A DNA stretch of 57,171 nt, taken from assembly GCA_042577045.1 (NCBI GenBank), contig JBHPEK010000003.1, positions 1-57,171 on the forward strand. Reading direction: 5' to 3'. Positions 9,466-37,904 of this stretch are shown here, piece after piece. The stretch is from Patescibacteria group bacterium (GTDB lineage Bacteria > Patescibacteriota > Minisyncoccia > JAHISW01 > Tagabacteraceae). The position numbers and the translations under genes are program-made. Each line of letters begins with the position of its first letter. Position 1 is the stretch's first letter. The notes under the pieces are model-generated. The model had not been told where the DNA came from and did no database searches. It saw nothing but the letters and a program-made list of their open reading frames with translations.

Positions 9466-9650
9466 CCCAAAAAACGCCCTATTCTAGGAAAATATAGGCG
9501 TGTTTTCCTAGAATAAGCTAAAAAATGCCCGCCTCTCTTCCTTAGACATCTGCACGATACTCGATTTCGTGTAGTGTCGGCGGGTGGCAAACTTCTTGCC
9601 AAAGTAATATCCCAGTACTCCGGCGATTAGTACATATAAATAATTCATAG
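9466..9650. repeat. ~185-nt dispersed repeat, copy 1 (contains small ORF 9508-9648 and its 3' hairpin)
   Basis: Aligned by eye to 11225-11408. The 3' ~125 nt are nearly identical (1 mismatch, 1 indel). The 5' ~57 nt of the ORF are only about 70% identical. Confidence 0.85.
9508..9648 (-). CDS. Small hydrophobic/basic peptide, 46 aa (MNYLYVLIAGVLGYYFGKKFATRRHYTKSSIVQMSKEERRAFFSLF)
   Basis: Hand-translated; it is below the ORF-track cutoff. A second copy at 11266-11406 differs only by conservative changes. The stop codon sits inside an 11-bp hairpin (9482-9513). Confidence 0.45.
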   Translation of the reverse strand: MNYLYVLIAGVLGYYFGKKFATRRHYTKSSIVQMSKEERRAFFSLF

Positions 9651-10665: not shown

Positions 10666-11043
10666 TTAACGATCAGTCATGAGCAGGATAAAATAAACTA
10701 ACATCGAGTCCGCTTCTCTTCTTTTTATAACACAAAAGCCAGTTTTAGAGTCACACCACAACAGTTGCCCTTTGACATCATGGCCAGCACCAATATGGAC
10801 TGTCTCCTTCATACGCGCATTGAATAATCGAACTTGCGCAGTGGTCATTACATCACGAGCTCTGTACACGTGAGCGGTTTTTCCCCCACGATACCTATCA
10901 AAATTCCACACGTCATCCTCTGACTCTTTTTCTCGAAAATAATCTTTTAAATCTCCGCCATCAAAAACAAAACAGAAACCTGTGGATGGAATTAAAAAGC
11001 TTAACACCAAACAAACACCAATTACCAAAAATGTTTTTTTCAT
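10666..11043 (-). CDS. Hypothetical secreted or membrane-anchored protein (125 aa)
   Basis: N-terminal hydrophobic signal-like segment. GGGGGAG lies 5 nt upstream of the ATG. Confidence 0.55.
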   Translation of the reverse strand: MKKTFLVIGVCLVLSFLIPSTGFCFVFDGGDLKDYFREKESEDDVWNFDRYRGGKTAHVYRARDVMTTAQVRLFNARMKETVHIGAGHDVKGQLLWCDSKTGFCVIKRREADSMLVYFILLMTDR

Positions 11044-20337: not shown

Positions 20338-20362
20338 CTGTGGGAGATTGGATTTCCCACAG
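20338..20362. repeat. REP-type palindrome CTGTGGGAGAT-TGG-ATTTCCCACAG (REP1), 6 nt after the RAYT stop
   Basis: Read directly. It has one stem mismatch relative to REP2. Confidence 0.85.
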
Positions 20363-20368
20363 ATACTA

Positions 20369-21025
20369 CTATTCCATCAACAACTCCCTTAATTCCTCGA
20401 ATTTGTTTTTTGCTTTGTCTTTTACGCAACTTTTCAAAAATTCTTCATATTCATTATAGTTTGTAAGAGGCGTCCATTTGTATTGCTCAAGAAACTTTTT
20501 GGCCTTTTTCCAGTCCTTTACCCCTTCTTCTTTCCACCTTAACTCAAAAAGATCTAAGGGGTTTAAGTAAATATATTGTTTCAAATAATTTAAATATTCA
20601 TCTTTATCTATTAAAATTGCTTTAAACCTACCTTGAAAAAGCGAACCACTTCTTTCATGTTTTTGATTAAAATAAAGGGTAAAGCCGATTCCCAATTTCT
20701 GCATAAAATCGGAAATTCCTTTTTCTTCTAGTTGCTCGAGAATTAAATGGAAGTGATTGGGCATTAAACAACTACAATGTATTTTAATAACTGGCTCTCT
20801 ATCCTCAGCTTTTATTCTGTGGGAGATTGGATCTCCCACAGAAACCATTCCATCTTCCACGTTTACTCGACGAAAAAGATTTATTGAGGAGTTCTTGTCA
20901 TTGAAATCTCTAAGACTAAAAAGAAAACGATGATAATCCTTGTCGTCCATGAAAATATCACGTTTATCCACTCCACGATTAAAAACATGATAAAAATGGT
21001 TATTTGCAAATTGAAGTCTTTTCAT
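20369..21025 (-). CDS. Y1 HUH transposase, IS200/RAYT-like (REP-associated tyrosine transposase family)
   Basis: It has YHVFNRG, the HUH motif MPNHFHLIL, GSLFQGRFK and the tyrosine motif QYIYLNP. It is flanked by inverted palindromes. Confidence 0.8.
   Translation of the reverse strand: MKRLQFANNHFYHVFNRGVDKRDIFMDDKDYHRFLFSLRDFNDKNSSINLFRRVNVEDGMVSVGDPISHRIKAEDREPVIKIHCSCLMPNHFHLILEQLEEKGISDFMQKLGIGFTLYFNQKHERSGSLFQGRFKAILIDKDEYLNYLKQYIYLNPLDLFELRWKEEGVKDWKKAKKFLEQYKWTPLTNYNEYEEFLKSCVKDKAKNKFEELRELLME
20817..20841. repeat. REP-type palindrome CTGTGGGAGAT-TGG-ATCTCCCACAG (REP2), in frame inside the RAYT ORF (encodes SVGDPISHR)
   Basis: Perfect 11-bp arms. It maps to codons 62-70 of the ORF. 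Confidence 0.9.
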
Positions 21026-21053
21026 TATTTATATTGTACACCAATTTTCATTT

Positions 21054-21078
21054 CTGTGGGAGATCCAATCTCCCACAG
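21054..21078. repeat. REP-type palindrome CTGTGGGAGAT-CCA-ATCTCCCACAG (REP3), 29 nt upstream of the RAYT start
   Basis: It is the exact reverse complement of REP2, so its orientation is inverted. Confidence 0.9.
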
Positions 21079-22300: not shown

Positions 22301-23395
22301 TTATTTCTTTTTTCTTTTCTTTTTATATACCACGTGGAGTGGGTAAAACTCAAAATAGTCATCTTCGTCAAACCAAGCGCATTTGAAACTATAAAGCCGT
22401 AACCCCGTCAAGCGCGACAAGGCCAAAGCATAAATGGTTAATTGTTCAATTGGCTTATATTTTTTAGCGCTCGGCTTAAAATCCATAATATGGATCATTC
22501 CGTTTCTTAATTGGACAATATCAATATGTCCAGTAATCGTCCCTTCCTTGCCAACATCAAGAGGAACAATAAAATTAAGCATATTTTGAAAATGATCTAT
22601 GTCTTCCTTGTCCAAGACAACCGGCACTTCAACCGCCAAAGTCGTTGAGTCGCAAAACAATAAAAATTCCTGCAAAACCTCGTGACGTTTTTTATTATTC
22701 GACACAGCCTGCATAACAAATTTTGCTGTCTCTGTAGCTTTGTTTTCTTTTCTGGTAATTCTAACCTGGTCTAGGTCAAATTTCTTCTTAAAATCAGAGG
22801 CGCGAAACTTACTTTCAGTAAAAACTTTATGCGGACATTCAGCAATTATCAATTCCAAAAAACTTTTGATTGATTTCAGCTTATAATTTTTAAAATCTTC
22901 ATTCAAAAGCAAGTCTGTCTTCCATTTGTGATACATAAAATCATAAACTTGCTGGTGGAATAACCGATGTTCTGTGGTCATTTCTTTCAAATTAAATTCT
23001 TTATCGCTAATTTTTTTACTCAAATAATCCCGCATCCTAGCAAAAGGTGTTAAATATTCATATTGCTTTGTCCAATTTATAATAGTATTTGTAGAAATTT
23101 TTAAACCATAATCTTTGTTTATCTTTTCGCAAATCTCTTCCGGTTTTAAAAACTTATTATGCAAAACAAGGCTTTGTAAAATTATAGCGACTGGATATGT
23201 CTTACCTTTTGTAACCAAAGGAGTAAATTTTTTCTTACAATGGTTACAGTAAAAAACTTGTACTTTTTCATGCTTTTTTGCGCGAAAACCAGCCTTAACA
23301 AAACCAGATCCCTTGCAATACGGGCAGTGGGTTATGGTTTTGAGTCCAGCAACAGGAGGAAGGTTCTTTTTTCTTGTTATTATTTCTTTCCCCAT
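22301..23395 (-). CDS. Zn-ribbon + HTH (IS1 InsA-like N-terminus) fused to a PD-(D/E)xK (Cas4/RecB-like) nuclease domain
   Basis: The N-terminus has CPYC...C.HC and then an HTH-like STNTIINWTKQY. The C-terminus has GHIDIV...IHIMDFKP...QLTIYALAL (D, D/ExK and QxxxY motifs). It overlaps the upstream ORF by 16 nt. Confidence 0.55.
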   Translation of the reverse strand: MGKEIITRKKNLPPVAGLKTITHCPYCKGSGFVKAGFRAKKHEKVQVFYCNHCKKKFTPLVTKGKTYPVAIILQSLVLHNKFLKPEEICEKINKDYGLKISTNTIINWTKQYEYLTPFARMRDYLSKKISDKEFNLKEMTTEHRLFHQQVYDFMYHKWKTDLLLNEDFKNYKLKSIKSFLELIIAECPHKVFTESKFRASDFKKKFDLDQVRITRKENKATETAKFVMQAVSNNKKRHEVLQEFLLFCDSTTLAVEVPVVLDKEDIDHFQNMLNFIVPLDVGKEGTITGHIDIVQLRNGMIHIMDFKPSAKKYKPIEQLTIYALALSRLTGLRLYSFKCAWFDEDDYFEFYPLHVVYKKKRKKK

Positions 23396-23802
23396 ACCCT
23401 ATTCCATGCTTTTTTCAAGTTAAGAATTCTCAATTTTACACGCTGATACCTTTTTAAAATATCCGTCAATTCATCTTGTAGTCTTTCGCTATCAACTAAA
23501 GCGTTCAAAAAATCTATTTTAGCAACAATCATATTTACAATATATGCCGACTTCTCCATTTTACGAGACGTTGACTCCAAATCTGAAAACTTATCGCCAT
23601 AGCTTTCCACAATCAATCTTGGAACTTGCTTGGACATCTCTTTCAACTTGCCAATTTCCTCCATTAAATCTTTATCATTTTTATACTTAACCGGAATTTT
23701 CAAATTAAAAATCTCCGCAGACAATTTTGTAGTCTGCTGATATACCTCTAGGTCTCTAAAACTTTTTACTGGAGTTCTAACTCTGAATTTGTCATACATC
23801 AT
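23380..23802 (-). CDS. Four-helix-bundle protein (23S rRNA intervening-sequence protein / Avd family)
   Basis: The SFRDLEVYQ...L...I start is typical of the family, and the protein is about 140 aa. The start is set at the ATGATG pair preceded by GGGGGTGA. The ORF track begins at 23841. Confidence 0.65.
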   Translation of the reverse strand: MMYDKFRVRTPVKSFRDLEVYQQTTKLSAEIFNLKIPVKYKNDKDLMEEIGKLKEMSKQVPRLIVESYGDKFSDLESTSRKMEKSAYIVNMIVAKIDFLNALVDSERLQDELTDILKRYQRVKLRILNLKKAWNRVWGKK

Positions 23803-23890
23803 GTCACCCCCTATTGTAACAAATATATCCAAAAATGTCAACCTCTCTATTTTCCGCTCTCAATGCCAAGTTTTTGTTCCATATAATAAC

Positions 23891-24155: not shown

Positions 24156-27100
24156 CTAATCGGTTGGTGTAGTCGTAGCAACTGGTTCTGGTTCTGGTTC
24201 AATTATAACTTCTGGAGTCGTCGTCGCTTGAGATTCATCTTCTTCAGCTTCAGCCCCGATGCTTTCCAGAATCTCCGATTCTGTGAAAGATCGAGGGTCT
24301 TCGACCCCGCCAGGGGCGGGCGTCGGGAGTTCAGGTTCTTCGTTGGTTATTGTTTCTTGGTTATTGATTATTATCACCTCTCTTGTGGTGATCCCTGTGT
24401 TTCCAGCTTGATCTGTAGCGGTAAATGTTATTGTGTGAGTTGTGGTAGTTGAAGTGTCTAAACTAAGTTCGTTTGGATATATCTCTGGTCCATCGTTTAG
24501 AATTACTTTGTAACCTAGGTTGGTGTCTACATTATCTGTAATAGTGGCTCCCATGTCGCTGTAGGTGGCATTAAGATCTAGATTTGCAGGGTTGTTACCG
24601 AGCAACTCTATAACAGGCGGTTCAGAATCCGGGGAAACATCCGATGTCGAGGAGGAGTCTGTTTCGGACGACGGGAGCACATCGGATGTTGAGGAGGATT
24701 CAGTCGGGGTCGTCGTCGTAGATTCAAGCCCTGCGTTCAATAGCAATTCTTTTAGTTGTTCTTCATTTATACAAGTACTTCCAACACAAACCTCGTCATC
24801 TACAAAGAGACTTTTTACTGTCAATATCTTATCCCTCAACCACTCAAGAAGTGTATCAAAAATTGAAGTTGTACTTGGCACACCTGCCTGTCCGGCAGGC
24901 AGGCTTGTTGTGGTAAGTCCAACTTCAAGGGATTGAAGTCTTAGCTCTAAGTCGTCAATCTTTTTCTGCTGTTCTTGAACACCAGCCAAAACAAATGTTG
25001 TTAGTTTGTAGAGGTCTACACCTTTACCATCCAAACTTAAAATCTCTATCGGCGCTTCTTCGGCAATTAAACCTAATCGTAAAGGTGTTTGGTTATTGTC
25101 TCTTGTATCTTGGTCATTGAGATAGTTATACTTCGCTACTTTCATCTCTTTTATCTTGTCTAGCACGTCTGCCTTTTCTTCTTCATCAAGATACATAATG
25201 TCTTTCTTTGCTTCACGAGTAGAAATATTTACAAAACCTTCCGCAGCTACATCTCCAAGAACATGCAGTTTATATTCCGGAGTAGAAGTGCCTACCCCAA
25301 AGTCAGCTCCAATGCCTACATTTCCGTCCTCCCCAATGAACATAGAAGAAGCATCTACGTAATTGGATTGTCCAAGAATAATTAAGACTGAAATCCTGCC
25401 AGTTTTCCACCTCCCAGATTCTGAATCAAAAACCTCTTGAGTTTTGAGAGAGGGGTCGCTAGAAATAACATTATCTTCATTATCCTCTACAAATTCGAGA
25501 GGTGAGTTTTCGTCAAAATCTTCCATTGCAATACCCACAAATTCTTCCCCTTTCTCCGCTTTTTTTCCTACTCCTCTCAAAAGATTTGATAGAGAAATTT
25601 TATCGCCCGGTTCTATATTTCCATTCTCCAAAGTTATTTTAATTGGTACTCGACCAGTTAAAGCAATTCTTTCGGCATCATCTCCCTGATATTCTGCTCC
25701 CATTGTGAGATGAGGATTTGTAGAAACAGCACCTAAAATAGTGTTATTTTGAGCCGTACGGCATCTTGCTACCTTATTTGACTCAGATATAGAGCAAACA
25801 ATGTCACCAGGCTCTAGCGTTGATTTGCCTTCTGCAGATAAATTTACTTGCGCTACCTTAAACCACTCTGCTACGTCAACCGCTCCTCCACTTCGCGAAG
25901 TGGCATAAATATTTCCGTCAGTATTTGTTTGAGGACAAGATCCATCGGATAAAATACACACCTTTGCGCCACCATATACATCTAAAGTACGAACTGGACT
26001 CGTCGTGCCGATGCCGACGTTGCCGTTAGCATCAACTGTCATATCAATATTTGCTGCGCTTCTTGCTATATAAAATTTTCCTGCCACATGCCTCAAAACA
26101 GCATCACCGGCAACATCACCAGTAACAAGCTTATTAGAATCTGACGCTGCCCCTAAAAGAACTCCCTCGCTACTGCCTGTGTAATTTCCAGCAAAAGACG
26201 GGGAGTTATTACCTATCAAAATACTACCAGCGTATTGTGTAGTAGAATATACATCAAGTAGTGCCCCCGGACTCGTCGTCCCGATGCCGACGTTGCCGCC
26301 GTTGTCTATTGTCATTTGCTCCGTGCTGACCGTCCAAAAACTCATTTCATCTCCATCATGATTATAAACCACTCTACCTTGTGCAGGAGCGGCTTGACCA
26401 TCTCCGAAATATAAGTTACCTCTCTCGTCAGTAGCGGTCAAGATAGTAATGCCAGTTTGCCCACTTCCTTCTACTACAAATTCATCAGCATTTGTCCCTA
26501 GAGTTGAACCACCACCAGTACCTGTTTTAACATGAAAAGGTGCTAAAGGCCCCGTCGTCCCGATGCCGACGTTGCCGTTATCTAAAACCGTAAACTTTGG
26601 ACTATCATTGCTATCAGCTATGACAAACGCTCTTCCTGTGGTTGTGCCATCTCCCGTGATAGACAATTTACCCCACGGAGTGGTAGACCCGATGCCGACG
26701 TTGCCTGAACTCCCCTGTATGGTCATTATTGTAGATGGGGTAGTTGAACCTGCCATGAAAACTATATCTCTATCTAAACTTGTTCTTGGTTGCAGAACTA
26801 AATGTCCAAAAGCATCAAAAGGATAAGTCCCTCCATCTGTTCCGCTTCGATATATATATGGGCTGCCATCATTTGTTGGCACAGATTCTAAACCAGCTAA
26901 GAATTTTAATGATGAGCCAGTCCCTGATATTTGTATTGTCCCTTCAACATCTAACTTTGTATCAGGACTCGCCGTCCCGATGCCGACGTTGCCCGCAGTT
27001 GCGTCGACGAAAAAGACGTCCGACGACCCTGCTTCTCCGACCCTAAAGTCCCCATCCACGTCCAGCAGATATGCTGGACTGGTGGTCCCGATGCCGACGT

Positions 27101-30100
27101 TGCCGTTATCTGTAAGCCTCATGACTTGCGTTTGAGTTGCTCCTGTATCGGTGGTTGTTAAGAAATCCATATTCCAATCGCCACCTGCATTTGGTTCCAA
27201 ACGGATAGCGCCATACGGATTAGCTGCAGTATGACTTGAATCTGACCACGCTATTCCTCTATACACTCCCGCATTCCAAGGAGCTCCATTCATTGAGATT
27301 TTAATTACATCTTCATCGGTTGTTTGAGCATTATTACTTATTACCTCAAGTTTAGTATCTGGCCCGGTCGTTCCGATGCCGACGTTGCCGGAATAATTTA
27401 TGGTCATAACAGTGTTTGTATCAATATCTGATTGCACATTTGAATTACTGTCATTTGGATCAAGCGCAAATTGAAGTTGTCCTCGATTGCGGTTCGATTC
27501 AGTCATCTTAAAAAATATCCCGGCTTTTACATATGTGCTAGGCAATGCATAGTTACTGAGTAATATACCAGTATATGGAGTTCCTAAGCTGTTACTGGCA
27601 TTCAAGAGATGGATATATGAATTGTTGTTTACCGCCGTTGTTAAAATATGCGATGGATCAATCAATCCTATACCGACGTTGCCGCTACTTCTTTCTATCA
27701 CAAACGGAACTGTTTCGGCCGTATCGTCTTGAATTTCAAAATCACCAGTATCGTTTTCTATTTCTAATCTCCAAGAATTCCCTACTGTTCCAGCTCCTGT
27801 CATTTCAAGAATAACATCTCCTGCTCTATACAGGCTTAATGCCTTAGCATTTCCTGCCTCAATACTTAAAGTTGACAACGGACTCGTCGTTCCGATGCCG
27901 ACGTTGCCAGCACTTGTTATTCTCATCCATTCTGTTGGAACTTGGTCTAAAGCAGTTAGAAATGCCAAATAAGAATCACTAGTTGCCGAACTTAAATAAG
28001 TATCTTCCCTGCCAGCTATTATCGCACCAGCAGAAACTCCAGTAGTTTGAGAAAACTGAATGCGTGTTGTTTCGTCCGTAGAACCAGGTGCAGCTGAATT
28101 TAATAATTCTATATCAGTTGAGCCACCATCATTTGTCTGTCGAATATGTAAAATATGGTCTGGCGCCGCCGTCCCAATACCAACATGTCCATTACCATTC
28201 ACTCCACTCACCACAAAAGATGGAGTTGAGCTACCAGAGTTTGAAACTACAAATGAATTTGTTTCAGTTCCTTGTTCTACTGCCAAGAGACCCCACGGAC
28301 TCGTCGTCCCGATGCCGACGTTGCCCGCAGTTGCGTCGACGAAAAAGACGTCCGACGACCCTGCTTCTCCGACCCTAAAGTCCCCATCCACGTCCAGCAG
28401 ATATGCTGGACTGGTGGTCCCGATGCCGACGTTGCCGGCTGTCACCATGCTTTTAGTCGTATTATTTAGATCTATATAATAGTCGTAATCGCCAGAATCA
28501 GTGAGCGTCTTGCTGTATACCGTTCCGTTATAAGTATAATAATAACCGGTAGAAACTATATTACCACTAGCTCCCAAACTCCCTGTTACGTCTAAGTTGT
28601 AAGCCGGATTCGCCGTCCCAATCCCCACACTCCCCGTATCAGTGACAATAAACTGCGTGGTTGATGAGCCAATCACGAAAGGATTGGTTGCGCCCGGAGA
28701 GTTGACTGACAAGAGACCCCAAGGACTGGTACTCCCGATGCCGACGTTGCCGTCTGTTGTGATTCTCATACGTTCGGTTGGAGCAGTATCTGATGTAACA
28801 TTTCTTGTCGAAAAAAGTAAATCACCTTTTCCAAGAACATCCGCAGCTGTCCATTTTAAAGCAATTGAAGCAACCGCATTAGTGTTGGTGTCCCCAGCAG
28901 CAAAGTTCAAAGAAATATGCTCATTTATATATGGTCCATCTGCACTTATTATATTTAATACACCTTGAGAAAGATTACCGAGAGTAGCGTTACGATCTCC
29001 AATTACTAACAACTTACCTGTTGGCGCCTCCGTCCCAATCCCCACACTCCCGTTTTCTAAAACTATAAACTGCGTAGTTGACGAGCCAATTACGAAAGGA
29101 TTAATTCCGCCAGGAGAGTTGACTGACAGAAGACCCCAAGGACTCGTCGTCCCAATGCCGACTTTCCCACTATCTGGGTCAACCACTAATTGATTAGCGT
29201 TCGTTGTAGTTCCTACCCTAAACCCTCCGTCTACATCTAAAAGGTAAGCCGGACTCGTCGTCCCGATGCCGACATTGCCGGCTGTCACCATGCTTTTAGT
29301 CGTATTATTTAGATCTATATAATAGTCGTAATCGCCAGAATCAGTGAGCGTCTTGCTGTATACCGTTCCGTTATAAGTATAATAATAACCGGTAGAAACT
29401 ATATTACCACTAGCTCCCAAACTCCCTGTTACGTCTAAGTTGTAAGCCGGATTCGCCGTCCCAATCCCCACACTCCCCGTATCAGTGACAATAAACTGCG
29501 TGGTTGATGAGCCAATCACGAAAGGATTGGTTGCGCCCGGAGAGTTGACTGACAAGAGACCCCAAGGACTGGTACTCCCGATGCCGACGTTGCCGTTATT
29601 ATCGATTCTCATTACTTCTGTTATATCATCAGCACCTGCCCCCGCAGCAGTAGAGAAAGCAATTGCACCTCCTATACTTGAACCAGTAGGAGCAGCATCA
29701 TCTACCTCAAATAATATTCTAGCAGGAGTTGTGCCATAATCTGTTCCATCATGAGCCCTTCCATCAATCCGAAGAAGTTGGTCGTTATCATTTACCACAG
29801 TTCCTACACCACGAGCCTTTCGACCCTGTATAACAAACGGATATACGTCAGCCGTTGTTCGTTCCAGAATCATATCTACAGCATTCCCCATAACATGTAA
29901 AATACCCTGTGGACTCGTTGTGCCGATGCCGATGTTGCCGCTTGCGTCTATCCTAAATCTTTCCGTATAAATACTTAACGCATCGTCGTATTCTCCAAAA
30001 GCCAGACTTCCGAGAGTTGAGGAAGCATACATATGCTTAAGATCAGACCCGCCTGAGGAATCAGTGAGGATGAGTTGTGGAGCCGTCCCTGCACTGAGCA

Positions 30101-33100
30101 CTTGCAGTAAAGCTGCAGGTGTCGAAGTGCCGACACCAACGTTGCCCTTCAAGTACGCAGTACCACTGCCATCAATTTTAAAGAAATCTGTTCCCGCAGT
30201 ACTCTCAACTAAAAGAGAATTATCTGATGAATCAACGCCTGCAGTAATAAGCAAACCGCTACTCTGGCCGGCGGTAATGTCTAAATTTTGAATCGTAAAT
30301 GTTGGAGTAGAATTATTCGCAATGAAATTTGTAGCCGTGGCTATAAACTTACCACTACCGTCTATTGTGAATAGATCATTACCCGCAGTACTCTCAACTA
30401 AAAGAGAATTATCTGATGAATCAACGCCTGCAGTAATAAGCAAACCGCTACTCTGGCCGGCGGTAATGTCTAAATTTTGAATCGTAAATGTTGGAGTAGA
30501 ATTATTCGCAATGAAATTTGTAGCCGTGGCTATAAACTTACCACTACCGTCTATTGTGAATAGATCATTACCCGCAGTACTCTCAACTAAAAGAGATTTA
30601 TCTGATGTGTTGACGCCTGCAGTAATAAGCAAACCGCTACTCTGAGCATCATTAATATCCTGATTATTAATGTGTACCAGTGGATTAGATGAATTTGCAA
30701 CAAAATTTGGTGCAACGATATGAAGAATTTTACCTGGAGTCGTTGTCCCTAATCCTAATTCCCCATCTGTAGCATCATAGAAAAATCCATTGTAGTTAGC
30801 TCCTTCGGCAAACCTAACGTCGCCATCTACTTCTAAAACCGCTGCCGGACTCGTCGTCCCGATGCCGACGTTGCCGCCATTGAAATACGACGTTGCACCT
30901 GCATTAATATTCACTCCTGTGTCCCCATTACTATCATAAAACCAAGCAACACCATTGTTATCAGTACCTCCGATTGTAACAGACCCATATCCACTTATTC
31001 CTTGCTCATAGTCATCAACAACCAATCTTCCTCCATATAAATGTAATTGATGGTCTGGACTCGTTGTCCCGATGCCGACGTTACCGTCATTTGCTAAAAC
31101 CAATTGATCGATATTTTGAGCAGTAGAAGAGTATGTATATAATTTCATTATAGAAGGTACATAATTGCCAGCGGCCCCATCTTGTATTACATCAATAACA
31201 GCTCCTTTATCAAAATTATTTCCACTATCCACACCACGAAATTGGATAGCAGCTAAACTATCGCCATCTTGTGTCGTTGAAACTGTTCCTACAGTATCAC
31301 TATCAGAAGTTCTTAAAATTAACAATTGATAATCACCAGGAGCAGTAGCATAAGTAGTTCCATAAATAACTCCATCATCAGCAGATGTTACAACCTCAAA
31401 TTTACTACTCGGACTCGTCGTCCCGATGCCGATGTTGCCGTCGGATTGGATACGCACCTTTTCGCTTGCCGTTCCCGCTGTGGTTGGCATGAAAACTAAG
31501 TCACCTGTATTATCTGCTCCAGCCCTTACTCCTCCAATGTACCCCAACATACCAGACGCATTTACTGTCGAAGCATCATTGGTAGCATCAGCCATATCAA
31601 AGACAATACCTGAACCAAATCCATCAACCGCATCTCCCGTACTTTTGTGAACAAAATGTGCTCCAGCCCTCAAGGCATTTGTTATGGCTGTGCTCCTTTG
31701 GAACCAAAAATCTTCATACTCTGTTCCAGTAATGCTTAGTTTTCCAATTGGCGTCGTCGTCCCGATGCCGACGTTGCCGTCATGATTTATCCGCATCCTT
31801 TCCGTTGCTACTGCACTATCATCAGTTCCATCAGCTTTTATCTTAAATACCAAATAACCACCCTTAGCAGTAGCGGAATGGTCTTGCGAAGCGTAACCTT
31901 CAATTGAAACAGAAGCATCTACTGAACTTGCCTTATCAACTGCATCAAACATCAGTCGCCCTAAAAGGTTACCAGCTTCAGTTGTAGCATCAAATCTTTC
32001 AAGTAAAATATCTGCTGCATCTGTAACTACAAATTTACGATTTGGCGCCACCTTCCCGATGCCGACGTTGCCGTCATCTAACACCACCATTTTGGGGCTA
32101 TCATTACTATCTGCGACTAAAAATGCTCTCGTGGTATTGCCTGTTCCAGAGCTTGTAACGGCTAATACTGCAAATGGACTCGTCGTACCGATGCCGACGT
32201 TGCCGCCATTGTTAATGTAACTATCTGTTCCAGAGTCAGCATGAAATTGAATTTTTAATGCTCCCGAAGAATCCCTTATACCGAAATTACCATCCCCCGA
32301 ACCATCTGTACCCATATTTACAACCCTTACACCTGAGACAGCATTACTCAAAACAATCCCATCTGAACCATCTGTTGACTGTTCAACCTCTAATTCGAAA
32401 GAAGGCGTCGTCGTTCCGATGCCGACGTTGCCGTCTCCTGTAAATGTAACTCTATCACCATCCGTACCTTCTGTTCCATAAAATCTTAAATCATCACCAC
32501 TAGTGTAAATTTCGTATACATTAGCTCCACCCTTAGACAGTTGTAAATTGCCCCCGTTTACCCCATCTACACGTATCTGAGTAGTTCCGGCGGTACCACT
32601 AAACAATGCAGTGGGAAAAGCAGTACTTTCTACATGTAATGGGTGGTCCGGACTCGTCGTCCCGATGCCGACGTTGCCGTTTCCTAAGACTGTCACCAAT
32701 TCCGTCCCGAAATTATACAACTGAAAGACCGTTTCAGAAGCCCCCAATGCTTCCCAACCTGTCCCATCTTTTTTCGCACCAGCCATAAGTATTGCAGGAA
32801 TAGTATCAGTCGGGTCAGTATCGCCAATGATTCCATATATTTCTAAGCCACTATCGTCTGTGTCTGACAAACCCCAAATTGCCATTCCTCCTTGAGTCGC
32901 TTGTGCAACATTAAACTGCCCAAATGCATTTGTTGGTAATAGAGTTGTCATTCCATGAGCTACATCATTATCACTTAAAATAAGATTTCCATCAAAAACA
33001 TCCAACAACGCCCCTGGACTCGTCGTCCCGATGCCGACGTTGCCGTCTGAACCTTGGACAAAGAGAGCCGTTCCTGAATCCCAATTGATAGTCGTATCTG

Positions 33101-36100
33101 CATCTACACTCCCACCATTTATAATTACATTACCACCAGATGACACACTGAATCGTTCAACACCAGCGTTTTTAACAGCTAAAAGAGCTTCATCATTGTC
33201 ATTATCATTAGCATCTATTAAGACTCCTGCTCCATCGGTATCATCATTATCAAAAATCCCAGCCCACGCATTGGTATATGAACCCATAATGTGAAGCGCG
33301 GCGGCTGGTGCTGCTTTTCCTATCCCCACATTTCCTGAAAAATATCCAGCTCCGTGAACTGCAAACAGTTGACTTGGACTCGTCGTCCCGATGCCGACGT
33401 TGCCGTTGTTGTCAATCGTTACTACATCACTATTATCATAACCTCTTATAAATAATTTTTGGACATTAGCGTCATAAGTTAATCCAGCTTCAGCAGTATC
33501 GCCACTATCTCCAAACTGAAGTTCAGAATAACCCCCAACATCAGAAGTCAATCTGAATCTGGGATTTGTGTTTCTAATTTGCAAATCACTATCTGGACTC
33601 GTTGTGCCGATGCCGACGTTGCCGTTCGCATCCACTACCATAATTCCCTGATTAGTAGAAGAAGCTATCTGAAAAAATGGAATAGTTGCATCAAGGACAT
33701 TATTTATAACCAAACCGTATTTAGGCGTTGTTGTACCGATGCCGACGTTGCCCCATTGGTCTATTCTCATTCGCTCTCGGAGCACCATTGAACTCCATGT
33801 TTCTTGTGTGCCAAATGTAAGGTGTGACCCAAGACCATAGGCTGTCCCAGAAATAGCTCTGACATAAGCCGAGGTTCTATTACCTACATCCGCATCTCCA
33901 TTATAGAAATCTAATCCTCCAACCAAGACGCCGTTGTCCATGGTAGTATCTGAAGTGCCAAGCATTATTGTTGGCCCAGTAGCTTGGATAAGTGATAATT
34001 CCGTCATAGGCGTAGTCGTACCGATGCCGACGTTGCCGTTGGTAAATAAGAAATCACCTGTACCTGTTGTTTGGAAATCAATATCTGCGCCACTTACTTC
34101 ATTTAAAATATCCATATCTGAATTAGCAGCACTACCCCATCCTAAATAACCAAGACGAGTTCCATTATTCATTACTACTTCTAAAAATCCCGAAGCACTA
34201 ACACCATCAACTGTATCTTGCAATTGAATAACTGGCACTGCGTTATCTATATGCAAAGCCCGTTGTGGCGCCGTCGTCCCGATGCCGACGTTGCCGTCTG
34301 AACCTTGAACAAAAATAGAAGGTGTTGCTGAATTTGGAAAAACTATAAAATCACTATCAACTTGACCTTCATTAAATGTTATGTCAGAAGCACTTAAAGA
34401 CATCATTTTGTTATCACCAGTCCTTTCCCATATTGCAAACTCATCCCCATCACTTCCTATGTCAGCATAACCTTCGCTGTTTTCCATTCTTATTCTTGTT
34501 GAACCTGCTGTTGTTGTTAAGACATGAAGATTTTTTTGTGGACTCGTCGTACCGATGCCGACGTTGCCGCCACTTACTTGTAGAACCAATGGTACAGCAG
34601 CACCATCATAATTCCAAGACTGGACACTTCCATAGCTTTCAGCATCGTTTGCTGCGATATGAACAGCTACTCCAGAACTATCAGCGTCTTTTCTACCAAT
34701 TGTTACCCCAAACCCATCAGTTGGACTATAAAAATTAGCAATCTTTGTACTTGCCGCACCGACAACTTCTAATTTAGATAATGGACTCGTCGTCCCGATG
34801 CCGACGTTGCCTGTACTTGTGATTCTCATTCTTTCAAAAGTATAAGGAGAGGTATCATTGTTTGCGACTTCAAAAGCTAAATACCCATCAACATCATTGT
34901 CGTTACTGTTTTCCTTTTTGCCATGGATTTTAGCAAAATCAACAAGAGCCCCAGTAGTTATATATTTACCACCTAACGCAAGTGACCCACCCACATTAAT
35001 TGCCGCAGCATCACTAGTTGATATATATAAATTCCCATGGTCATTACTAACTGCACCAACTGCTATATTTGCACCGAGTACATGTAATAATTCCGCTGGA
35101 CTCGTCGTCCCGATGCCGACGTTGCCGGAACCACCATCTACAAAGAATTTACTCGTTCCTACTGAAAAGTCTGCTCCTATGGCGTGTGAACCAGTTGTAG
35201 TGGCATTTCCTGTTGTGGTAGCGTTTCCTGTAACACTCAGACTTCCTATCGTGGCAAGTGTGGCATTGAAATCCGCTATCGTCCCTAAGCTTGTTAATGA
35301 CGAAGCAACGACTGAACTACCTAAAGTTGTCGCTGAAAGAATATTGGCGTCATTGATTAGATAAACAGAGCCGGTTGGAATATTGATATTTCCCGTAGAT
35401 AGAGTTAATCCTCCACTGAAAGTAGATGTGGCATTGTTTCCAAGTATAGTAGTCGTCGCTGTTCCTCCAACATACAAAGTATCAAAGACTGAAAGTCTGG
35501 TTGTTGACGCTTGAACGAAAGCAAGAAGATCCGGAAGATCTAAAGTGACTGTTCCATCTCCGTCATCAGTTACAGTAAGTTCGTTTGCTGTGCCTGTTAT
35601 CCACGAATTGATATCTGTGTCTGTAATGATTTTGTTTGAGTCTAGAGAAAGAAGTCTAGACGCGTTTAGATTTTGCAGAGTAGTGTTGCGAGAGACAAGA
35701 AGATCGGTGGTGGAAGCAGTGGTAACGGTGACCATCGTAGTTGAGGCGTATGGAAAAGTAGAAGCCACAGTAGTAGATGTAGCGGTGTAATAGTTTGCTG
35801 AAATGTCTTGATTGAAAACTCCTCGTCCGTCCACGGCTAATTTGGCATATGGTGAAGTGGTTCCAATTCCCACATTCCCATCCGAACTAATAAATATTGT
35901 AGAAGTAGCTTGGGCTATACCACTATCATCTCCAATGATGAAGTTTCCTTTTGTTAGAGCAATGTCTGTTACTGAAATACTACCAGATGGAAAATCTACC
36001 CAAGATGTCGCTTGAAGACCTGTGGTTGTTAAATATGGAAGAGTTGAGGTAGATGTAGTAGTGGCTGTAAAATATGCAGAGACTGTTTCTCCGACAACAG

Positions 36101-37904
36101 ACAATTTGGCATATGGAGAGGTAGAACCAATACCGACGTTGTTATTGTATGAATCTACAAAAAGAGTGTTGGTGTCTACAATAAAATCATCATTGACGGT
36201 AGTGGTTGCGTTAAAGGTGGTAAGACCTGTGTAGTTTTGTGTTCCTCCCACGGAGAAGTTGCCGACCACAGACAAGTTTCCACCAACGGAACCCTCACCA
36301 GAAGTTGAAAATGTTTCTAAGTCTGCATTTCCTGAGACTATTGGTGTGGAGATAGTTGGTGTCGCTATGGTTGGTCGATTGATATAGCTGACTATTTGGG
36401 TTTGGGCTAGTTTTTGCGTATTAGATTCAAATTTTCTTAAAAGTTCTTTTTTAACATCTTCTACCTGAGACAAAAGGTGTAAATTTAAAGTATCTAATTT
36501 GGTATCAACTTCGGCCTCTGTTAATTCAGAAAGAATTTTTTCAACAGTATGCTCTACAACTGTTTGGGTAACTTTTACTCCTGATGTCTGTAAAAAGTCT
36601 AATTCTGACCTAATGTCTTTTATTAAATCCGTTTCTGTCTCTCCTATTCTTTCATCTTTTTCTTTATAAACAAAATTTTTGGTAGTTCTCTGCAACTCAT
36701 CAACCCACCCAAGAACTACTTCCTTCACATTATGCGGGAATAGTACATAGCTGTCCTTTATCTCTTTGGATACTATTCTTGTAAGATTTTTTGTTTTTCC
36801 AGCATACCCCTTAACCTCTCTCCCAAAATCAACAATATTTTCCGTCGTAACTTCTGCAAAATCCTTTGTTCCCTCAACAGCGTTTGATATTGTGGCTGAC
36901 CAGTTGGTATGAGAAACACTTAAACCATCTGATGTAAAACGAAAACTATCTTTGACCGGCGGATTCATAGCCAAAGCTATTTTAGATCGGACATTTTTCT
37001 CAACTTCTCTTAGCTCTATTTGTGGCAAGGAAACAATATCTAATGGGGCAATTTTAAGTCCGGCAATGTCGTCATTTGGAGAACCTACGACTTTGTAATA
37101 AATATCTATCTGTTTGTCGTAAACGATTTCCTGCAACTCACCCTTGTCTAGAAGATTTTTAAGACCAGAAATTTTTATATAGACAAAGTTAACTCCACCA
37201 TCAAACTTACTACTAACACCCAAAGAAATTTCTTCAAATCTGTTGGCAACTTTTTCACGTAATGCCAACGAATTCTGATAAAAACTTTTTCTATCCACAA
37301 ACGATTTTATTTTATAAGAAAAATTTTCTACACTGCGCATTGACCTTGCCAAAGGATTAGCAACAATGTCCAGGTTTTCCGCAAATGAAAAAATATTTTT
37401 TTGAGTATCATTAGTAAAACTTATCACCGAGTCTTTGGCGGAGGCTATAATTTTTTTAGAAAAATTTGAAAAACTAAATCCAGAAGCTTGAACCGTCGTG
37501 TAAAAAACAATGAGAGATAAAATTGCAAAAGAAGTGACAAAAATTTTCTTCCCACCAAAAACGTGGCTTCTAACTGGAACTGGAGCTGGAGGCTCTGGAG
37601 GCTCTTGAAGACCTTGAGGCTTTGGAAAAATTTTTTCAATTACCCCATTATTATTCTTGTATGCCTTTTCAACTTCTTTTTGATAATTTTCTATCCACTC
37701 TTTTTTTGTAAGCCATCTTTTTCCAACCCTTTCAGACTTTAATTTGCCTTGGCGACAAAGCAAACCCAAGTGATGTTGAGTGTATCCAAAGGATTTAGAT
37801 GCAACTTTTAACGAGATCAAATCCTCGTCTTTTTCAACACCATTGTCGGGACAAATTGGTGCATCTTCAACATTATGAATTTTTTGAATATCTGGCTTAA
37901 CCAT
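24156..37904 (-). CDS. Giant (4,582 aa) membrane-anchored surface protein: N-terminal HTH, 1 TM, coiled region, ~43 tail-fibre-like GNVGIGTTSP repeats, S74-type intramolecular chaperone domain, DUF5011-like Ig domain, acidic tail
   Basis: Uninterrupted 13.7-kb ORF. The HTH-like segment is aa ~28-72 (nt 37689-37823). The TM helix is aa ~121-139. The motif G-N-V-G-I-G-T-T-S-P-x-x-x-L-x-V recurs throughout. STREAKKDI...LGLIAEEAP...LAGVQEQQKKIDDLE lies at nt ~24925-25225. PPVIELLGNNPANLDLNATYSDMGATITDNVD lies at nt ~24355-24625. Confidence 0.9.
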   Translation of the reverse strand: MVKPDIQKIHNVEDAPICPDNGVEKDEDLISLKVASKSFGYTQHHLGLLCRQGKLKSERVGKRWLTKKEWIENYQKEVEKAYKNNNGVIEKIFPKPQGLQEPPEPPAPVPVRSHVFGGKKIFVTSFAILSLIVFYTTVQASGFSFSNFSKKIIASAKDSVISFTNDTQKNIFSFAENLDIVANPLARSMRSVENFSYKIKSFVDRKSFYQNSLALREKVANRFEEISLGVSSKFDGGVNFVYIKISGLKNLLDKGELQEIVYDKQIDIYYKVVGSPNDDIAGLKIAPLDIVSLPQIELREVEKNVRSKIALAMNPPVKDSFRFTSDGLSVSHTNWSATISNAVEGTKDFAEVTTENIVDFGREVKGYAGKTKNLTRIVSKEIKDSYVLFPHNVKEVVLGWVDELQRTTKNFVYKEKDERIGETETDLIKDIRSELDFLQTSGVKVTQTVVEHTVEKILSELTEAEVDTKLDTLNLHLLSQVEDVKKELLRKFESNTQKLAQTQIVSYINRPTIATPTISTPIVSGNADLETFSTSGEGSVGGNLSVVGNFSVGGTQNYTGLTTFNATTTVNDDFIVDTNTLFVDSYNNNVGIGSTSPYAKLSVVGETVSAYFTATTTSTSTLPYLTTTGLQATSWVDFPSGSISVTDIALTKGNFIIGDDSGIAQATSTIFISSDGNVGIGTTSPYAKLAVDGRGVFNQDISANYYTATSTTVASTFPYASTTMVTVTTASTTDLLVSRNTTLQNLNASRLLSLDSNKIITDTDINSWITGTANELTVTDDGDGTVTLDLPDLLAFVQASTTRLSVFDTLYVGGTATTTILGNNATSTFSGGLTLSTGNINIPTGSVYLINDANILSATTLGSSVVASSLTSLGTIADFNATLATIGSLSVTGNATTTGNATTTGSHAIGADFSVGTSKFFVDGGSGNVGIGTTSPAELLHVLGANIAVGAVSNDHGNLYISTSDAAAINVGGSLALGGKYITTGALVDFAKIHGKKENSNDNDVDGYLAFEVANNDTSPYTFERMRITSTGNVGIGTTSPLSKLEVVGAASTKIANFYSPTDGFGVTIGRKDADSSGVAVHIAANDAESYGSVQSWNYDGAAVPLVLQVSGGNVGIGTTSPQKNLHVLTTTAGSTRIRMENSEGYADIGSDGDEFAIWERTGDNKMMSLSASDITFNEGQVDSDFIVFPNSATPSIFVQGSDGNVGIGTTAPQRALHIDNAVPVIQLQDTVDGVSASGFLEVVMNNGTRLGYLGWGSAANSDMDILNEVSGADIDFQTTGTGDFLFTNGNVGIGTTTPMTELSLIQATGPTIMLGTSDTTMDNGVLVGGLDFYNGDADVGNRTSAYVRAISGTAYGLGSHLTFGTQETWSSMVLRERMRIDQWGNVGIGTTTPKYGLVINNVLDATIPFFQIASSTNQGIMVVDANGNVGIGTTSPDSDLQIRNTNPRFRLTSDVGGYSELQFGDSGDTAEAGLTYDANVQKLFIRGYDNSDVVTIDNNGNVGIGTTSPSQLFAVHGAGYFSGNVGIGKAAPAAALHIMGSYTNAWAGIFDNDDTDGAGVLIDANDNDNDEALLAVKNAGVERFSVSSGGNVIINGGSVDADTTINWDSGTALFVQGSDGNVGIGTTSPGALLDVFDGNLILSDNDVAHGMTTLLPTNAFGQFNVAQATQGGMAIWGLSDTDDSGLEIYGIIGDTDPTDTIPAILMAGAKKDGTGWEALGASETVFQLYNFGTELVTVLGNGNVGIGTTSPDHPLHVESTAFPTALFSGTAGTTQIRVDGVNGGNLQLSKGGANVYEIYTSGDDLRFYGTEGTDGDRVTFTGDGNVGIGTTTPSFELEVEQSTDGSDGIVLSNAVSGVRVVNMGTDGSGDGNFGIRDSSGALKIQFHADSGTDSYINNGGNVGIGTTSPFAVLAVTSSGTGNTTRAFLVADSNDSPKMVVLDDGNVGIGKVAPNRKFVVTDAADILLERFDATTEAGNLLGRLMFDAVDKASSVDASVSIEGYASQDHSATAKGGYLVFKIKADGTDDSAVATERMRINHDGNVGIGTTTPIGKLSITGTEYEDFWFQRSTAITNALRAGAHFVHKSTGDAVDGFGSGIVFDMADATNDASTVNASGMLGYIGGVRAGADNTGDLVFMPTTAGTASEKVRIQSDGNIGIGTTSPSSKFEVVTSADDGVIYGTTYATAPGDYQLLILRTSDSDTVGTVSTTQDGDSLAAIQFRGVDSGNNFDKGAVIDVIQDGAAGNYVPSIMKLYTYSSTAQNIDQLVLANDGNVGIGTTSPDHQLHLYGGRLVVDDYEQGISGYGSVTIGGTDNNGVAWFYDSNGDTGVNINAGATSYFNGGNVGIGTTSPAAVLEVDGDVRFAEGANYNGFFYDATDGELGLGTTTPGKILHIVAPNFVANSSNPLVHINNQDINDAQSSGLLITAGVNTSDKSLLVESTAGNDLFTIDGSGKFIATATNFIANNSTPTFTIQNLDITAGQSSGLLITAGVDSSDNSLLVESTAGNDLFTIDGSGKFIATATNFIANNSTPTFTIQNLDITAGQSSGLLITAGVDSSDNSLLVESTAGTDFFKIDGSGTAYLKGNVGVGTSTPAALLQVLSAGTAPQLILTDSSGGSDLKHMYASSTLGSLAFGEYDDALSIYTERFRIDASGNIGIGTTSPQGILHVMGNAVDMILERTTADVYPFVIQGRKARGVGTVVNDNDQLLRIDGRAHDGTDYGTTPARILFEVDDAAPTGSSIGGAIAFSTAAGAGADDITEVMRIDNNGNVGIGSTSPWGLLSVNSPGATNPFVIGSSTTQFIVTDTGSVGIGTANPAYNLDVTGSLGASGNIVSTGYYYTYNGTVYSKTLTDSGDYDYYIDLNNTTKSMVTAGNVGIGTTSPAYLLDVDGGFRVGTTTNANQLVVDPDSGKVGIGTTSPWGLLSVNSPGGINPFVIGSSTTQFIVLENGSVGIGTEAPTGKLLVIGDRNATLGNLSQGVLNIISADGPYINEHISLNFAAGDTNTNAVASIALKWTAADVLGKGDLLFSTRNVTSDTAPTERMRITTDGNVGIGSTSPWGLLSVNSPGATNPFVIGSSTTQFIVTDTGSVGIGTANPAYNLDVTGSLGASGNIVSTGYYYTYNGTVYSKTLTDSGDYDYYIDLNNTTKSMVTAGNVGIGTTSPAYLLDVDGDFRVGEAGSSDVFFVDATAGNVGIGTTSPWGLLAVEQGTETNSFVVSNSGSSTPSFVVSGVNGNGHVGIGTAAPDHILHIRQTNDGGSTDIELLNSAAPGSTDETTRIQFSQTTGVSAGAIIAGREDTYLSSATSDSYLAFLTALDQVPTEWMRITSAGNVGIGTTSPLSTLSIEAGNAKALSLYRAGDVILEMTGAGTVGNSWRLEIENDTGDFEIQDDTAETVPFVIERSSGNVGIGLIDPSHILTTAVNNNSYIHLLNASNSLGTPYTGILLSNYALPSTYVKAGIFFKMTESNRNRGQLQFALDPNDSNSNVQSDIDTNTVMTINYSGNVGIGTTGPDTKLEVISNNAQTTDEDVIKISMNGAPWNAGVYRGIAWSDSSHTAANPYGAIRLEPNAGGDWNMDFLTTTDTGATQTQVMRLTDNGNVGIGTTSPAYLLDVDGDFRVGEAGSSDVFFVDATAGNVGIGTASPDTKLDVEGTIQISGTGSSLKFLAGLESVPTNDGSPYIYRSGTDGGTYPFDAFGHLVLQPRTSLDRDIVFMAGSTTPSTIMTIQGSSGNVGIGSTTPWGKLSITGDGTTTGRAFVIADSNDSPKFTVLDNGNVGIGTTGPLAPFHVKTGTGGGSTLGTNADEFVVEGSGQTGITILTATDERGNLYFGDGQAAPAQGRVVYNHDGDEMSFWTVSTEQMTIDNGGNVGIGTTSPGALLDVYSTTQYAGSILIGNNSPSFAGNYTGSSEGVLLGAASDSNKLVTGDVAGDAVLRHVAGKFYIARSAANIDMTVDANGNVGIGTTSPVRTLDVYGGAKVCILSDGSCPQTNTDGNIYATSRSGGAVDVAEWFKVAQVNLSAEGKSTLEPGDIVCSISESNKVARCRTAQNNTILGAVSTNPHLTMGAEYQGDDAERIALTGRVPIKITLENGNIEPGDKISLSNLLRGVGKKAEKGEEFVGIAMEDFDENSPLEFVEDNEDNVISSDPSLKTQEVFDSESGRWKTGRISVLIILGQSNYVDASSMFIGEDGNVGIGADFGVGTSTPEYKLHVLGDVAAEGFVNISTREAKKDIMYLDEEEKADVLDKIKEMKVAKYNYLNDQDTRDNNQTPLRLGLIAEEAPIEILSLDGKGVDLYKLTTFVLAGVQEQQKKIDDLELRLQSLEVGLTTTSLPAGQAGVPSTTSIFDTLLEWLRDKILTVKSLFVDDEVCVGSTCINEEQLKELLLNAGLESTTTTPTESSSTSDVLPSSETDSSSTSDVSPDSEPPVIELLGNNPANLDLNATYSDMGATITDNVDTNLGYKVILNDGPEIYPNELSLDTSTTTTHTITFTATDQAGNTGITTREVIIINNQETITNEEPELPTPAPGGVEDPRSFTESEILESIGAEAEEDESQATTTPEVIIEPEPEPVATTTPTD
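24883..24910. repeat. GC-rich hairpin element CCTGCC-n-GGCAGG+CAGGCTTGTTG, copy embedded in the giant ORF (encodes TSLPAGQAG)
   Basis: It shares an exact 17-mer and the hairpin arms with 10552-10578. Confidence 0.75.
26965..27105. repeat. 141-nt intragenic repeat, copy 1
   Basis: It matches 28297-28437 with 1 mismatch by eye, offset 1332 nt (in frame). Confidence 0.85.
28297..28437. repeat. 141-nt intragenic repeat, copy 2
   Basis: See 26965-27105. Confidence 0.85.
28419..28753. repeat. 335-nt intragenic repeat, copy A
   Basis: It matches 29262-29596 with 1 mismatch by eye, offset 843 nt (in frame). Confidence 0.85.
29262..29596. repeat. 335-nt intragenic repeat, copy B
   Basis: See 28419-28753. 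Confidence 0.85.
30193..30570. repeat. Two identical tandem 189-nt (63-codon) units, with degenerate units on both sides (~30140-30760)
   Basis: CCCGCAGTACTCTCAAC... restarts at 30193, 30382 and 30571. The first two units are identical by eye. Confidence 0.9.

Follow-up and report, generated by a model that had tools for sequence, protein, structure and literature searches.

A 29-nucleotide block frozen at synonymous sites in a giant fibre gene of a patescibacterium: a probable footprint of concerted evolution on a short homology island

The window analysed here is a stretch of 57,171 nucleotides (nt) from a Patescibacteria group bacterium (contig JBHPEK010000003.1), and its subject is a minus-strand gene for a predicted giant fibre protein of 4,582 residues, in which a 29-nt block recurs with its synonymous positions frozen. 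The major version of the block, termed H1, reads GGC AAC GTC GGC ATC GGG ACG ACG AGT CC on the coding strand and encodes GNVGIGTTSP. Freezing is confined to the block, block haplotypes are gene-specific, copied tracts end in blocks, and the cassettes of the giant protein are mosaic. We read the frozen block as the probable footprint of concerted evolution acting on a short homology island, a reading drawn from sequence patterns, to which we assign a probability of about 0.6. The process would be a known one in an unusual form: the modules of a giant adhesin have diverged except for a homogenised island of minimal length.

The frozen block and its extent

24156..37904, minus strand: giant fibre gene, 4,582 aa (open reading frame; Pfam PF13884 and PF16403).
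25996..35126, minus strand: region with about 31 canonical H1 blocks (GGC AAC GTC GGC ATC GGG ACG ACG AGT CC), each at a module start.
26269..26297, minus strand: exact 29-nt H1 block, motif at residue 3870; 36-37 nt here match blocks in genomes of other families (L131/G025, L132/G021) at 100% identity.
29449..29477, 29023-29051 and 28606-28634, minus strand: blocks of a second recurrent haplotype, H2 (GGG AGT GTG GGG ATT GGG ACG).
35851..35879, minus strand: decayed AT-type block (GGG AAT GTG GGA ATT GGA ACC ACT TCA CC).

The host genome comprises 579 kb in 24 contigs at 36.7% GC, and the assembly is 81% complete. Analysis of the giant open reading frame revealed 41 G[NSKH][VIF]G[IV]G motifs. 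The plus-strand core CCGATGCCGACGTTGCC occurs between 26008 and 35126 in 32 copies at no more than two mismatches, 25 of them exact, against none in shuffled sequence, and all 32 lie on a single strand and in a single frame. The coding-strand 17-mer GGCAACGTCGGCATCGG has 27 exact copies, all in the giant gene, and was not found on the other 23 contigs of the genome. Eight copies of the full 29-mer are exact, and 27 are present at up to three substitutions. An earlier, sequence-only reading of the same window had estimated about 30 near-invariant cores among some 43 repeat units; the first figure agrees with the 32 copies found, whereas the second has to be lowered to 41 motifs.

The frozen tract begins at the wobble base of codon -1 and continues through codon +8, its wobble positions reading C C C C C C / G G G / T. 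In 76% of units the last base of codon -1 is C, though the residue encoded there varies, and the least fixed wobble base is the third base of the sixth codon (Gly), which reads GGG in 26 of 41 units. The copies fall into two classes, about 32 blocks with at most one change at the five core wobble sites and about seven with four or more, the latter mostly with AT-type or H2 codons. The decayed block at 35851..35879 indicates that the protein motif tolerates other codons even inside the giant gene.

Codon usage inside and outside the block

At identical residues, pairs of units used the same codon with a fraction of 0.62 inside the block versus 0.34 outside, and per-column codon homozygosity inside the block was 0.6-0.9, compared with 0.28-0.55 expected. 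An internal control was provided by Pro+9 (conserved in 40 of 41 units), Leu+13 (36) and Val+15 (29), whose codons lie at neutral expectation. Synonymous sites 1-13 nt off the block are fully randomised, and the GC content at third codon positions (GC3) of the giant gene outside the blocks is 0.28. Preferred codon usage was rejected as the cause, the block codons being among the rarest of the genome (GGC 0.16, AAC 0.34, GTC 0.08, ATC 0.13, ACG 0.10). The comparisons inside versus outside the block and with the genome-wide codon table thus bear out the sequence-only reading in its claims that synonymous positions are frozen and that the codons are locally atypical. Its argument that selection on the protein alone could not freeze the wobble bases is upheld by Gly, which is frozen to differing codons according to its position in the motif.

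Codon context was also rejected as the cause. C-ending codons before a G-starting codon are under-used genome-wide (for example, GTC at 0.06 before G versus 0.09-0.11 otherwise), so that this junction is avoided, and the peptides GNVG, NVGI, VGIG and GIGT in other genes are encoded with AT-rich codons. Nor is the block a universal need of the protein motif, since phage contigs and three relatives described below (L281-L283) use other codons for it.

Selection of the codons for translation, either through accurate or fast decoding by tRNAs with G34 or through a rare-codon pause that aids folding of the modules, appears very unlikely. It would fit the five or six consecutive C-ending codons and the presence of the tRNAs Gly-GCC, Asn-GUU, Ile-GAU, Thr-CGU and Gly-CCC, and codons as rare in the genome as these could slow the ribosome. 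However, one amino acid takes different frozen codons by position (GGC, GGC and GGG here; GGA, GGT and GGT elsewhere), the equally conserved Pro+9, Leu+13 and Val+15 are unbiased, and the non-conserved residue -1 has the same C bias. H1 is also found in genomes of 55-61% GC, where its codons are common, which argues against a universal rare-codon pause; AGT is frozen and not AGC; and tRNA-Val(UAC) is the only tRNA for Val among 32 tRNA genes, leaving GTC without a matching tRNA in the assembled part of the genome.

Copied tracts and mosaic cassettes

28297..28437, minus strand: 141-nt cassette copy A (gene nt 9468-9608; self-blastn, 99.3% identity to copy B).
26965..27105, minus strand: 141-nt cassette copy B (gene nt 10800-10940; self-blastn).

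The two 141-nt copies begin and end in H1 blocks, with end distances of 1/0/1/0 nt, and their flanks are unrelated. The giant gene and whole-genome loci with at least three blocks were surveyed for intragenic tracts that were 100 nt or longer and 88% identical or more. Among the 35 tracts (140 ends), 41% of ends lay within 3 nt of a block versus 9% for random positions, and many tracts of 141-359 nt run exactly from block to block. This excess of recently copied tract ends in blocks, 4-5 times above random, supports the suggestion of the sequence-only reading that the block is a recombination hotspot. For every cassette of the giant protein the best relative, at 35-87% identity, belongs to a different protein; exchange of cassettes would be expected to leave just such a mosaic.

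At 30161-30644 on the minus strand (gene nt 7261-7744), in a block-free stretch, a 189-nt unit is duplicated in tandem and in frame, with three copies of 86-95% identity. Its ends are not at blocks, so part of the duplication in the giant gene is not block-mediated.

Gene-specific block haplotypes

Genes of the same family were drawn by protein similarity, which made the sample blind to nucleotides. In every one of eight family genes, a major haplotype of its own predominates among the blocks, to a degree well beyond the background codon usage of the gene. A Wolfebacteria gene (L281) and two relatives (L282 and L283) carry H3, GGA AAC GTA GGT ATT GGT ACT; other family genes carry GGC AAT GTG GGC ATC GGC or GGC AAT GTC GGC ATT GGG, and two genes are H1-like. 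Wobble identity is 0.63-0.69 within loci versus 0.39-0.56 between loci, consistent with the concerted evolution by gene conversion that had been proposed from the sequence of the window. The three Gly codons give the clearest signature: Gly1/Gly4/Gly6 are GGC/GGC/GGG in the giant gene (32, 32 and 21 of 36; chi-square p = 3e-12), GGA/GGT/GGT in L281 and L282 (25/21/16 of 25; chi-square p = 2e-9 for L281) and GGC/GGC/GGG in a Roizmanbacteria gene (chi-square p = 8e-16). Such position-specific Gly codons are the mark of a haplotype and lie beyond the reach of a tRNA or translation effect.

The second haplotype, H2, in its general form GGG AAT/AGT GTG GGG ATT GGG ACG, shares none of the five core wobble bases with H1; in the giant gene it marks the inner boundary of a small 'WGLLSVN...FIV' cassette. 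Homogenised variants were also seen in relatives (G007, G026), one gene having GTG GGG ATT or ATA in five blocks, an H1/H2 hybrid pattern, and another having GGC AAT GTG GGC ATC GGC three times. A phage contig (L085) shows the wobble pattern TTTTA at 9 of 13 sites, and scanning of viral contigs with a wobble-blind degenerate pattern revealed that low-GC phage genes mostly encode GNVGIGT as GGT AAT GTT GGT ATT GGA ACT.

One cassette of the giant gene, GNVGIGTTSPAYLLDVDGDFRVGEAGSS..., is 87% identical in protein to the orthologous cassette of the Wolfebacteria gene, which has its own haplotype in most of its 30 blocks. The blocks of that cassette read GGA AAC GTA GGT ATA GGT ACT ACA TCT, and between the two cassettes synonymous sites are scrambled inside and outside the block alike. 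An orthologous cassette with different block nucleotides indicates that H1 is unnecessary for function.

This comparison bears on the possibility that the block is a sequence-specific DNA or mRNA element, read by a conserved factor such as the helix-turn-helix (HTH) domain of the family or a linked nuclease, and held by purifying selection on nucleotides. The same 29-mer is found in at least 120 species over several phyla and archaea despite protein identities of 24-35%, the constraint is position-dependent, with GTC and the first GGC almost invariant, and codon -1 ends in C despite a varying residue. Some single-motif family genes have partly H1-like cores, a DNA-binding domain lies within the family, and a nuclease module travels with it. 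Against these points, whole family genes use other haplotypes (H3 in L281-L283), even at the 87%-identical orthologous cassette; blocks in phage relatives are of AT type; about seven blocks within the giant gene itself are decayed or H2; and no complementary copy was found elsewhere in the genome. The HTH does not track H1, with one relative (G018) having the HTH without H1 and another (G025) having H1 without a detectable HTH, and of 61 related genomes, 4 have the nuclease whereas 24 carry H1. We consider such an element unlikely. The binding site for a DNA-binding factor that the sequence-only reading had offered as another option found no support here, given that orthologous cassettes use different nucleotides and the HTH does not follow the haplotype; the N-terminal HTH was rejected as block binder for the same lack of correlation. 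A complementary small RNA or rRNA segment was also sought, with no notable match of 10 nt or more elsewhere in the genome.

A fold of the block was considered as well, in which a conserved mRNA or single-stranded DNA hairpin, GGC-AA-CGUCG-loop-CGACG-A-GUC, would make the 13.7-kb transcript more stable or be recognised by its shape. The H1 core folds exactly in this way, with the loop holding the wobble base that varies most, that of Gly6, together with two of moderate variability, and the wobble base that varies least, that of GTC, sits in the middle of the stem. There is, however, no covariation: G at position 9 is accompanied by G at position 21, and 25% of C9 copies have a non-pairing partner. 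Moreover, equal or greater stability is reached by 20% of random synonymous recodings and by 38% of GC-matched ones, the hairpin is lost in H2 and weaker in H3, which has a similar shape (-6.4 versus -8.5 kcal/mol), and no Rfam match was found. The missing covariation largely refutes the hairpin, which we regard as highly improbable.

A model of concerted evolution on a short homology island

The pattern is consistent with the following pathway. Selection on the amino acids of a capping loop would fix the first two bases of nine consecutive codons, and this fixed scaffold would be the sole stretch in which diverged modules can still pair. Homologous recombination or gene conversion between modules would start and stop in the block, copying or swapping entire cassettes, while repair of the short heteroduplex would homogenise the nine wobble bases. 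The outcome would be a gene-specific frozen haplotype, here H1, that runs counter to the AT-rich codon usage of the genome. We infer that the homogenising process is short-homology recombination of the RecA type. The minimal efficient processing segment of Escherichia coli is about 23-27 bp, and the 27-29 nt of block identity is close to it.

If correct, the model provides a testable picture in which modules are exchanged at a 27-29-nt island that is held by amino-acid selection and kept identical by recombination, and the giant gene would offer a clean natural example of conversion limited to a near-minimal length for homologous recombination.

Spread of H1 and evidence against the model

Among the related genomes of other genera, 23 of 60 carry the 17-mer at no more than one mismatch. 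H1 is carried by 24 of 61 related genomes, and 31 of 61 have any GNVGIGT site. By record label, carriers of the exact 29-mer include many Patescibacteria classes, DPANN archaea, Omnitrophota, Bdellovibrionales, one cultured Solidesulfovibrio and others. The archaeal/eukaryotic ribosomal protein L31e was confirmed in four of the 29-mer bins labelled as archaea; in one of these, with a genome of about 0.5 Mb, the L31e match lies on contig C1, and the block-bearing contig is 457 kb long. H1 could thus serve as a simple sequence marker for such genes in Patescibacteria, DPANN archaea and other groups.

Two further occurrences of the exact 29-mer stand apart by their labels: one (L236) is on contig NODE_66 of the cultured sulfate reducer Solidesulfovibrio aerotolerans DSM 16695, and the other (L210) is in a 34% GC stretch of a 268-kb contig from a bin labelled Burkholderiales. 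Either could reflect contamination, phage or real transfer.

Comparison of the giant gene with the fetched relatives showed nucleotide similarity limited to 34-45 nt around the block, at 95-100% identity. Between genomes, longer tracts were seen rarely and with identities of no more than about 90%; some of them cover one small cassette from block to block. These data also speak to the possibility that the GC-rich blocks are remnants of a recent horizontal transfer from a GC-richer donor, whose flanks diverged faster, without any homogenisation. The family is patchy, as seen from the 31 of 61 related genomes with any site, and H1 resembles natural coding in Patescibacteria of 50-57% GC. Yet the GC3 of 0.28 outside the blocks is typical of a 36.7% GC genome, implying that the gene is long resident, differential divergence cannot yield full randomisation 1-13 nt from the block, and among tracts above about 130 nt none is as much as 80% identical to any fetched relative. 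Such a remnant is therefore hardly credible, and recent transfer of the whole gene was rejected, with no long shared tracts and a best protein identity of 24-35%.

Several observations weigh against concerted evolution as a sufficient account. The recombination steps are deduced from sequence patterns, and neutral conversion does not slow substitution of the whole array. H1 is the commonest encoding of GNVGIGT in related genomes and dominates other families of the class in a wobble-blind scan, at loci of 37-48% GC; the exact 29-mer occurs in at least 120 records, counting one genome per species, with local GC of 32-61%. The same 29-mer in other families, phyla and archaea makes within-gene conversion alone insufficient. 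At the same time, no long nucleotide tract is common to the giant gene and the fetched relatives, none above about 130 nt reaching 80% identity. H2 also recurs across lineages, its wobble pattern GTGGT being present at 20 sites in 16 loci versus about one expected. One-step variants of H1 are uneven, with 2 at GTC, 6 at the first GGC and 13-36 at other sites, and such uneven constraint is not predicted by simple conversion. Finally, some single-motif family genes keep partly H1-like cores, for example GGT AAT GTC GGC ATC GGG at a 33% GC locus.

Because neutral conversion is insufficient, the model of concerted evolution has to assume an extra stabilising force for the majority haplotype, which is called for by the persistence of H1 in an AT-rich genome (GC3 0.28 outside blocks) and in very distant lineages. 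Possible candidates are majority-favouring donor choice, GC-biased mismatch repair, selection to stay recombinable, and flow of cassettes between lineages. A choice of perfectly matching copies as donors would produce a bias to the majority, while AGT and the AT-rich H3 argue against GC-biased mismatch repair as a general rule. Persistence across domains would imply either conversion biased to the majority or GC-rich allele, or cassette flow between very distant lineages. Under the model, H1 itself would be an old haplotype of the cellular fibre family, kept by many lineages and replaced in some.

The predicted fibre

25053..25220, minus strand: Peptidase_S74 (intramolecular chaperone), residues 4229-4284 (Pfam PF13884, 23.1 bits versus a cut-off of 22).
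37662..37838, minus strand: excisionase/MerR-type HTH, about residues 23-81 (tblastn of residues 23-81 matches the starts of other family genes).

The giant gene is laid out as an N-terminal HTH, a predicted membrane-spanning segment, about 40 fibre modules, the S74 intramolecular chaperone and an Ig-like domain. The HTH precedes a hydrophobic stretch read as the membrane-spanning segment, the dyad region of the S74 domain reads S-T-R-E-A-K, in which the SDxxxK spacing is kept and Thr replaces Asp, and a bacterial Ig-like domain (Pfam PF16403) occupies residues 4432-4512 near the C-terminus. A search of 5.8 billion proteins revealed more than 560 relatives of 2,500-7,900 residues, mostly from Patescibacteria, with the recurrent architecture PF12728, then repeats, then S74 (PF13884), then DUF5011/Ig-like (PF16403). 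PF12728 (HTH_17) is annotated at the N-terminus of many homologues, which places a DNA-binding domain on a predicted surface adhesin. The closest relatives share just 24-35% identity with the giant protein across 1,051 residues. A 601-residue piece of the repeat region matched four solved chains of the Bdellovibrio mosaic adhesive trimer (MAT) fibres in the PDB (8oml, 8on4, 8ond and 8ojn; E = 1e-5 to 6e-4). From these sequence matches, the giant gene is predicted to encode a trimeric fibre of the MAT/S74 kind, in which each of about 40 modules opens with the capping-loop motif GNVGIGTTSPxxxL. Giant fibres of this kind probably mediate host recognition by ultra-small symbiotic or predatory microbes.

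Comparison with known systems

Concerted evolution of intragenic repeats by gene conversion or unequal recombination is established, for example, in repeat-bearing surface proteins of bacteria and in rRNA arrays. The giant gene resembles these cases in that copies within a gene are more alike than copies between genes, variants are gene-specific and recent patches are discrete. It differs in that only a 27-29-nt island is homogenised per module of about 40-250 residues, the rest standing at 25-30% protein identity, and in that one haplotype is common to several phyla and archaea. A literature search for 'GNVGIG' returned nothing, and no description of the persistence of a single haplotype across phyla and domains was found in the literature searched.

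In the gp37/gp38 adhesins of T-even phages, glycine-rich motifs and His boxes are reportedly recombination points at which specificity segments are swapped, as Tetart and co-workers in 1998 and Trojet and co-workers in 2011 are said to have found. Variable adhesin segments split by short conserved motifs, with exchange junctions in the motifs, are common to both systems. Unlike gp37/gp38, the giant gene is chromosomal in an ultra-small bacterium, has about 40 motifs, and uses as motif the S74/MAT capping loop; beyond those adhesins, conservation of the synonymous sites has been quantified for the giant-gene block and reaches across domains of life.

Cassette-based antigenic variation with short conserved flanking repeats is exemplified by Borrelia vlsE, where direct repeats surround the cassette region, and by Neisseria pilE/pilS. 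There, as in the giant gene, the variable cassettes of a surface protein are bordered by short nucleotide blocks that are conserved and that direct recombination. In contrast to vlsE and pilE/pilS, no silent donor cassettes were found, the block being absent from the rest of the genome, and all cassettes lie in one reading frame.

In the MAT fibres of Bdellovibrio bacteriovorus, the trimeric beta-helix modules bear capping loops that recur with the consensus V-G-G/N-pi-x-x-P-x-x-x-L (PMC10769870). The giant protein is like them (PDB 8OML, 8ON4, 8OND, 8OJN) in its sequence matches, its S74 chaperone and its repeated capping-loop motif, although its loop, V-G-I-G-T-T-S-P-x-x-x-L, is one residue longer between VG and P than the MAT consensus. 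It is 4-5 times longer than the MAT fibres, and is predicted to begin with a cytoplasmic HTH and a membrane anchor, whereas the MAT fibres have a signal peptide and then a conserved beta-rich domain. A term search of the MAT paper showed that the word 'nucleotide' is absent and that 'recombination' is used only for strain construction.

A linked nuclease module

22301..23395, minus strand: IS1-type zinc ribbon, HTH and PD-(D/E)xK nuclease, 364 aa (Pfam, NCBIfam).
23380..23841, minus strand: 153-aa partner gene (no Pfam or NCBIfam match; travels with the nuclease).

Both genes lie just downstream of the giant gene. Of about 135 fetched loci, 16 distinct ones contain the gene for the nuclease (17 rows, of which L139 and L219 are one record), usually directly 3' of the fibre gene and on the same strand, and the 153-aa partner was detected by tblastn in 12 loci, adjoining the nuclease. 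The loci with the module span several Patescibacteria classes and other bins (for example, L193, L207, L255, L203, L197, L160, L175, L227 and L219), and the gene order within the module varies between partner-nuclease and nuclease-partner. Linkage of the nuclease to fibre genes is thus strongly supported, and the nuclease is a candidate accessory. With only 4 of 61 related genomes having it, one copy lying 2 kb from blocks, it is too rare to account for the frozen block and was rejected as a requirement for it.

As a more speculative extension, which we regard as rather improbable, ultra-small symbionts and predators among the Patescibacteria, DPANN archaea, Omnitrophota and Bdellovibrionota may draw on a common, cross-phylum pool of fibre cassettes, with H1 as its recombination address and H2 as a second version that differs maximally. 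They would retain the identical 29-nt word to allow in-frame splicing of incoming or resident cassettes at module boundaries, and in a subset of lineages the exchange would be driven by the linked nuclease and its partner. If true, the pool would constitute a natural, nuclease-assisted cassette-shuffling system for giant adhesins.

Other repeat systems in the genome

Three known sources of repeated or variable DNA were considered and rejected as explanations of the block. Site-specific recombination of the shufflon type was rejected on the grounds that the 32 copies share one orientation and no recombinase is adjacent. For a diversity-generating retroelement (DGR), three reverse transcriptase (RT) loci have their own nearby repeat pairs, none of which matches the giant gene, and the block is absent elsewhere. 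For a relation to REP (repetitive extragenic palindrome)/RAYT elements, the palindrome found locally, TCTGTGGGAGAT...ATCTCCCACAGA, shows no relationship to the block, and the block is confined to one gene.

The RT genes lie at C4:33557-34171, C17:7876-8502 and C6:26454-27050, and the repeat pairs near them, of 93-190 nt and 83-89% identity, resemble DGR template and variable repeats. The RAYT-like gene, at 20338-21078 of the window, has the palindrome TCTGTGGGAGAT...ATCTCCCACAGA on both flanks and a third copy in frame.

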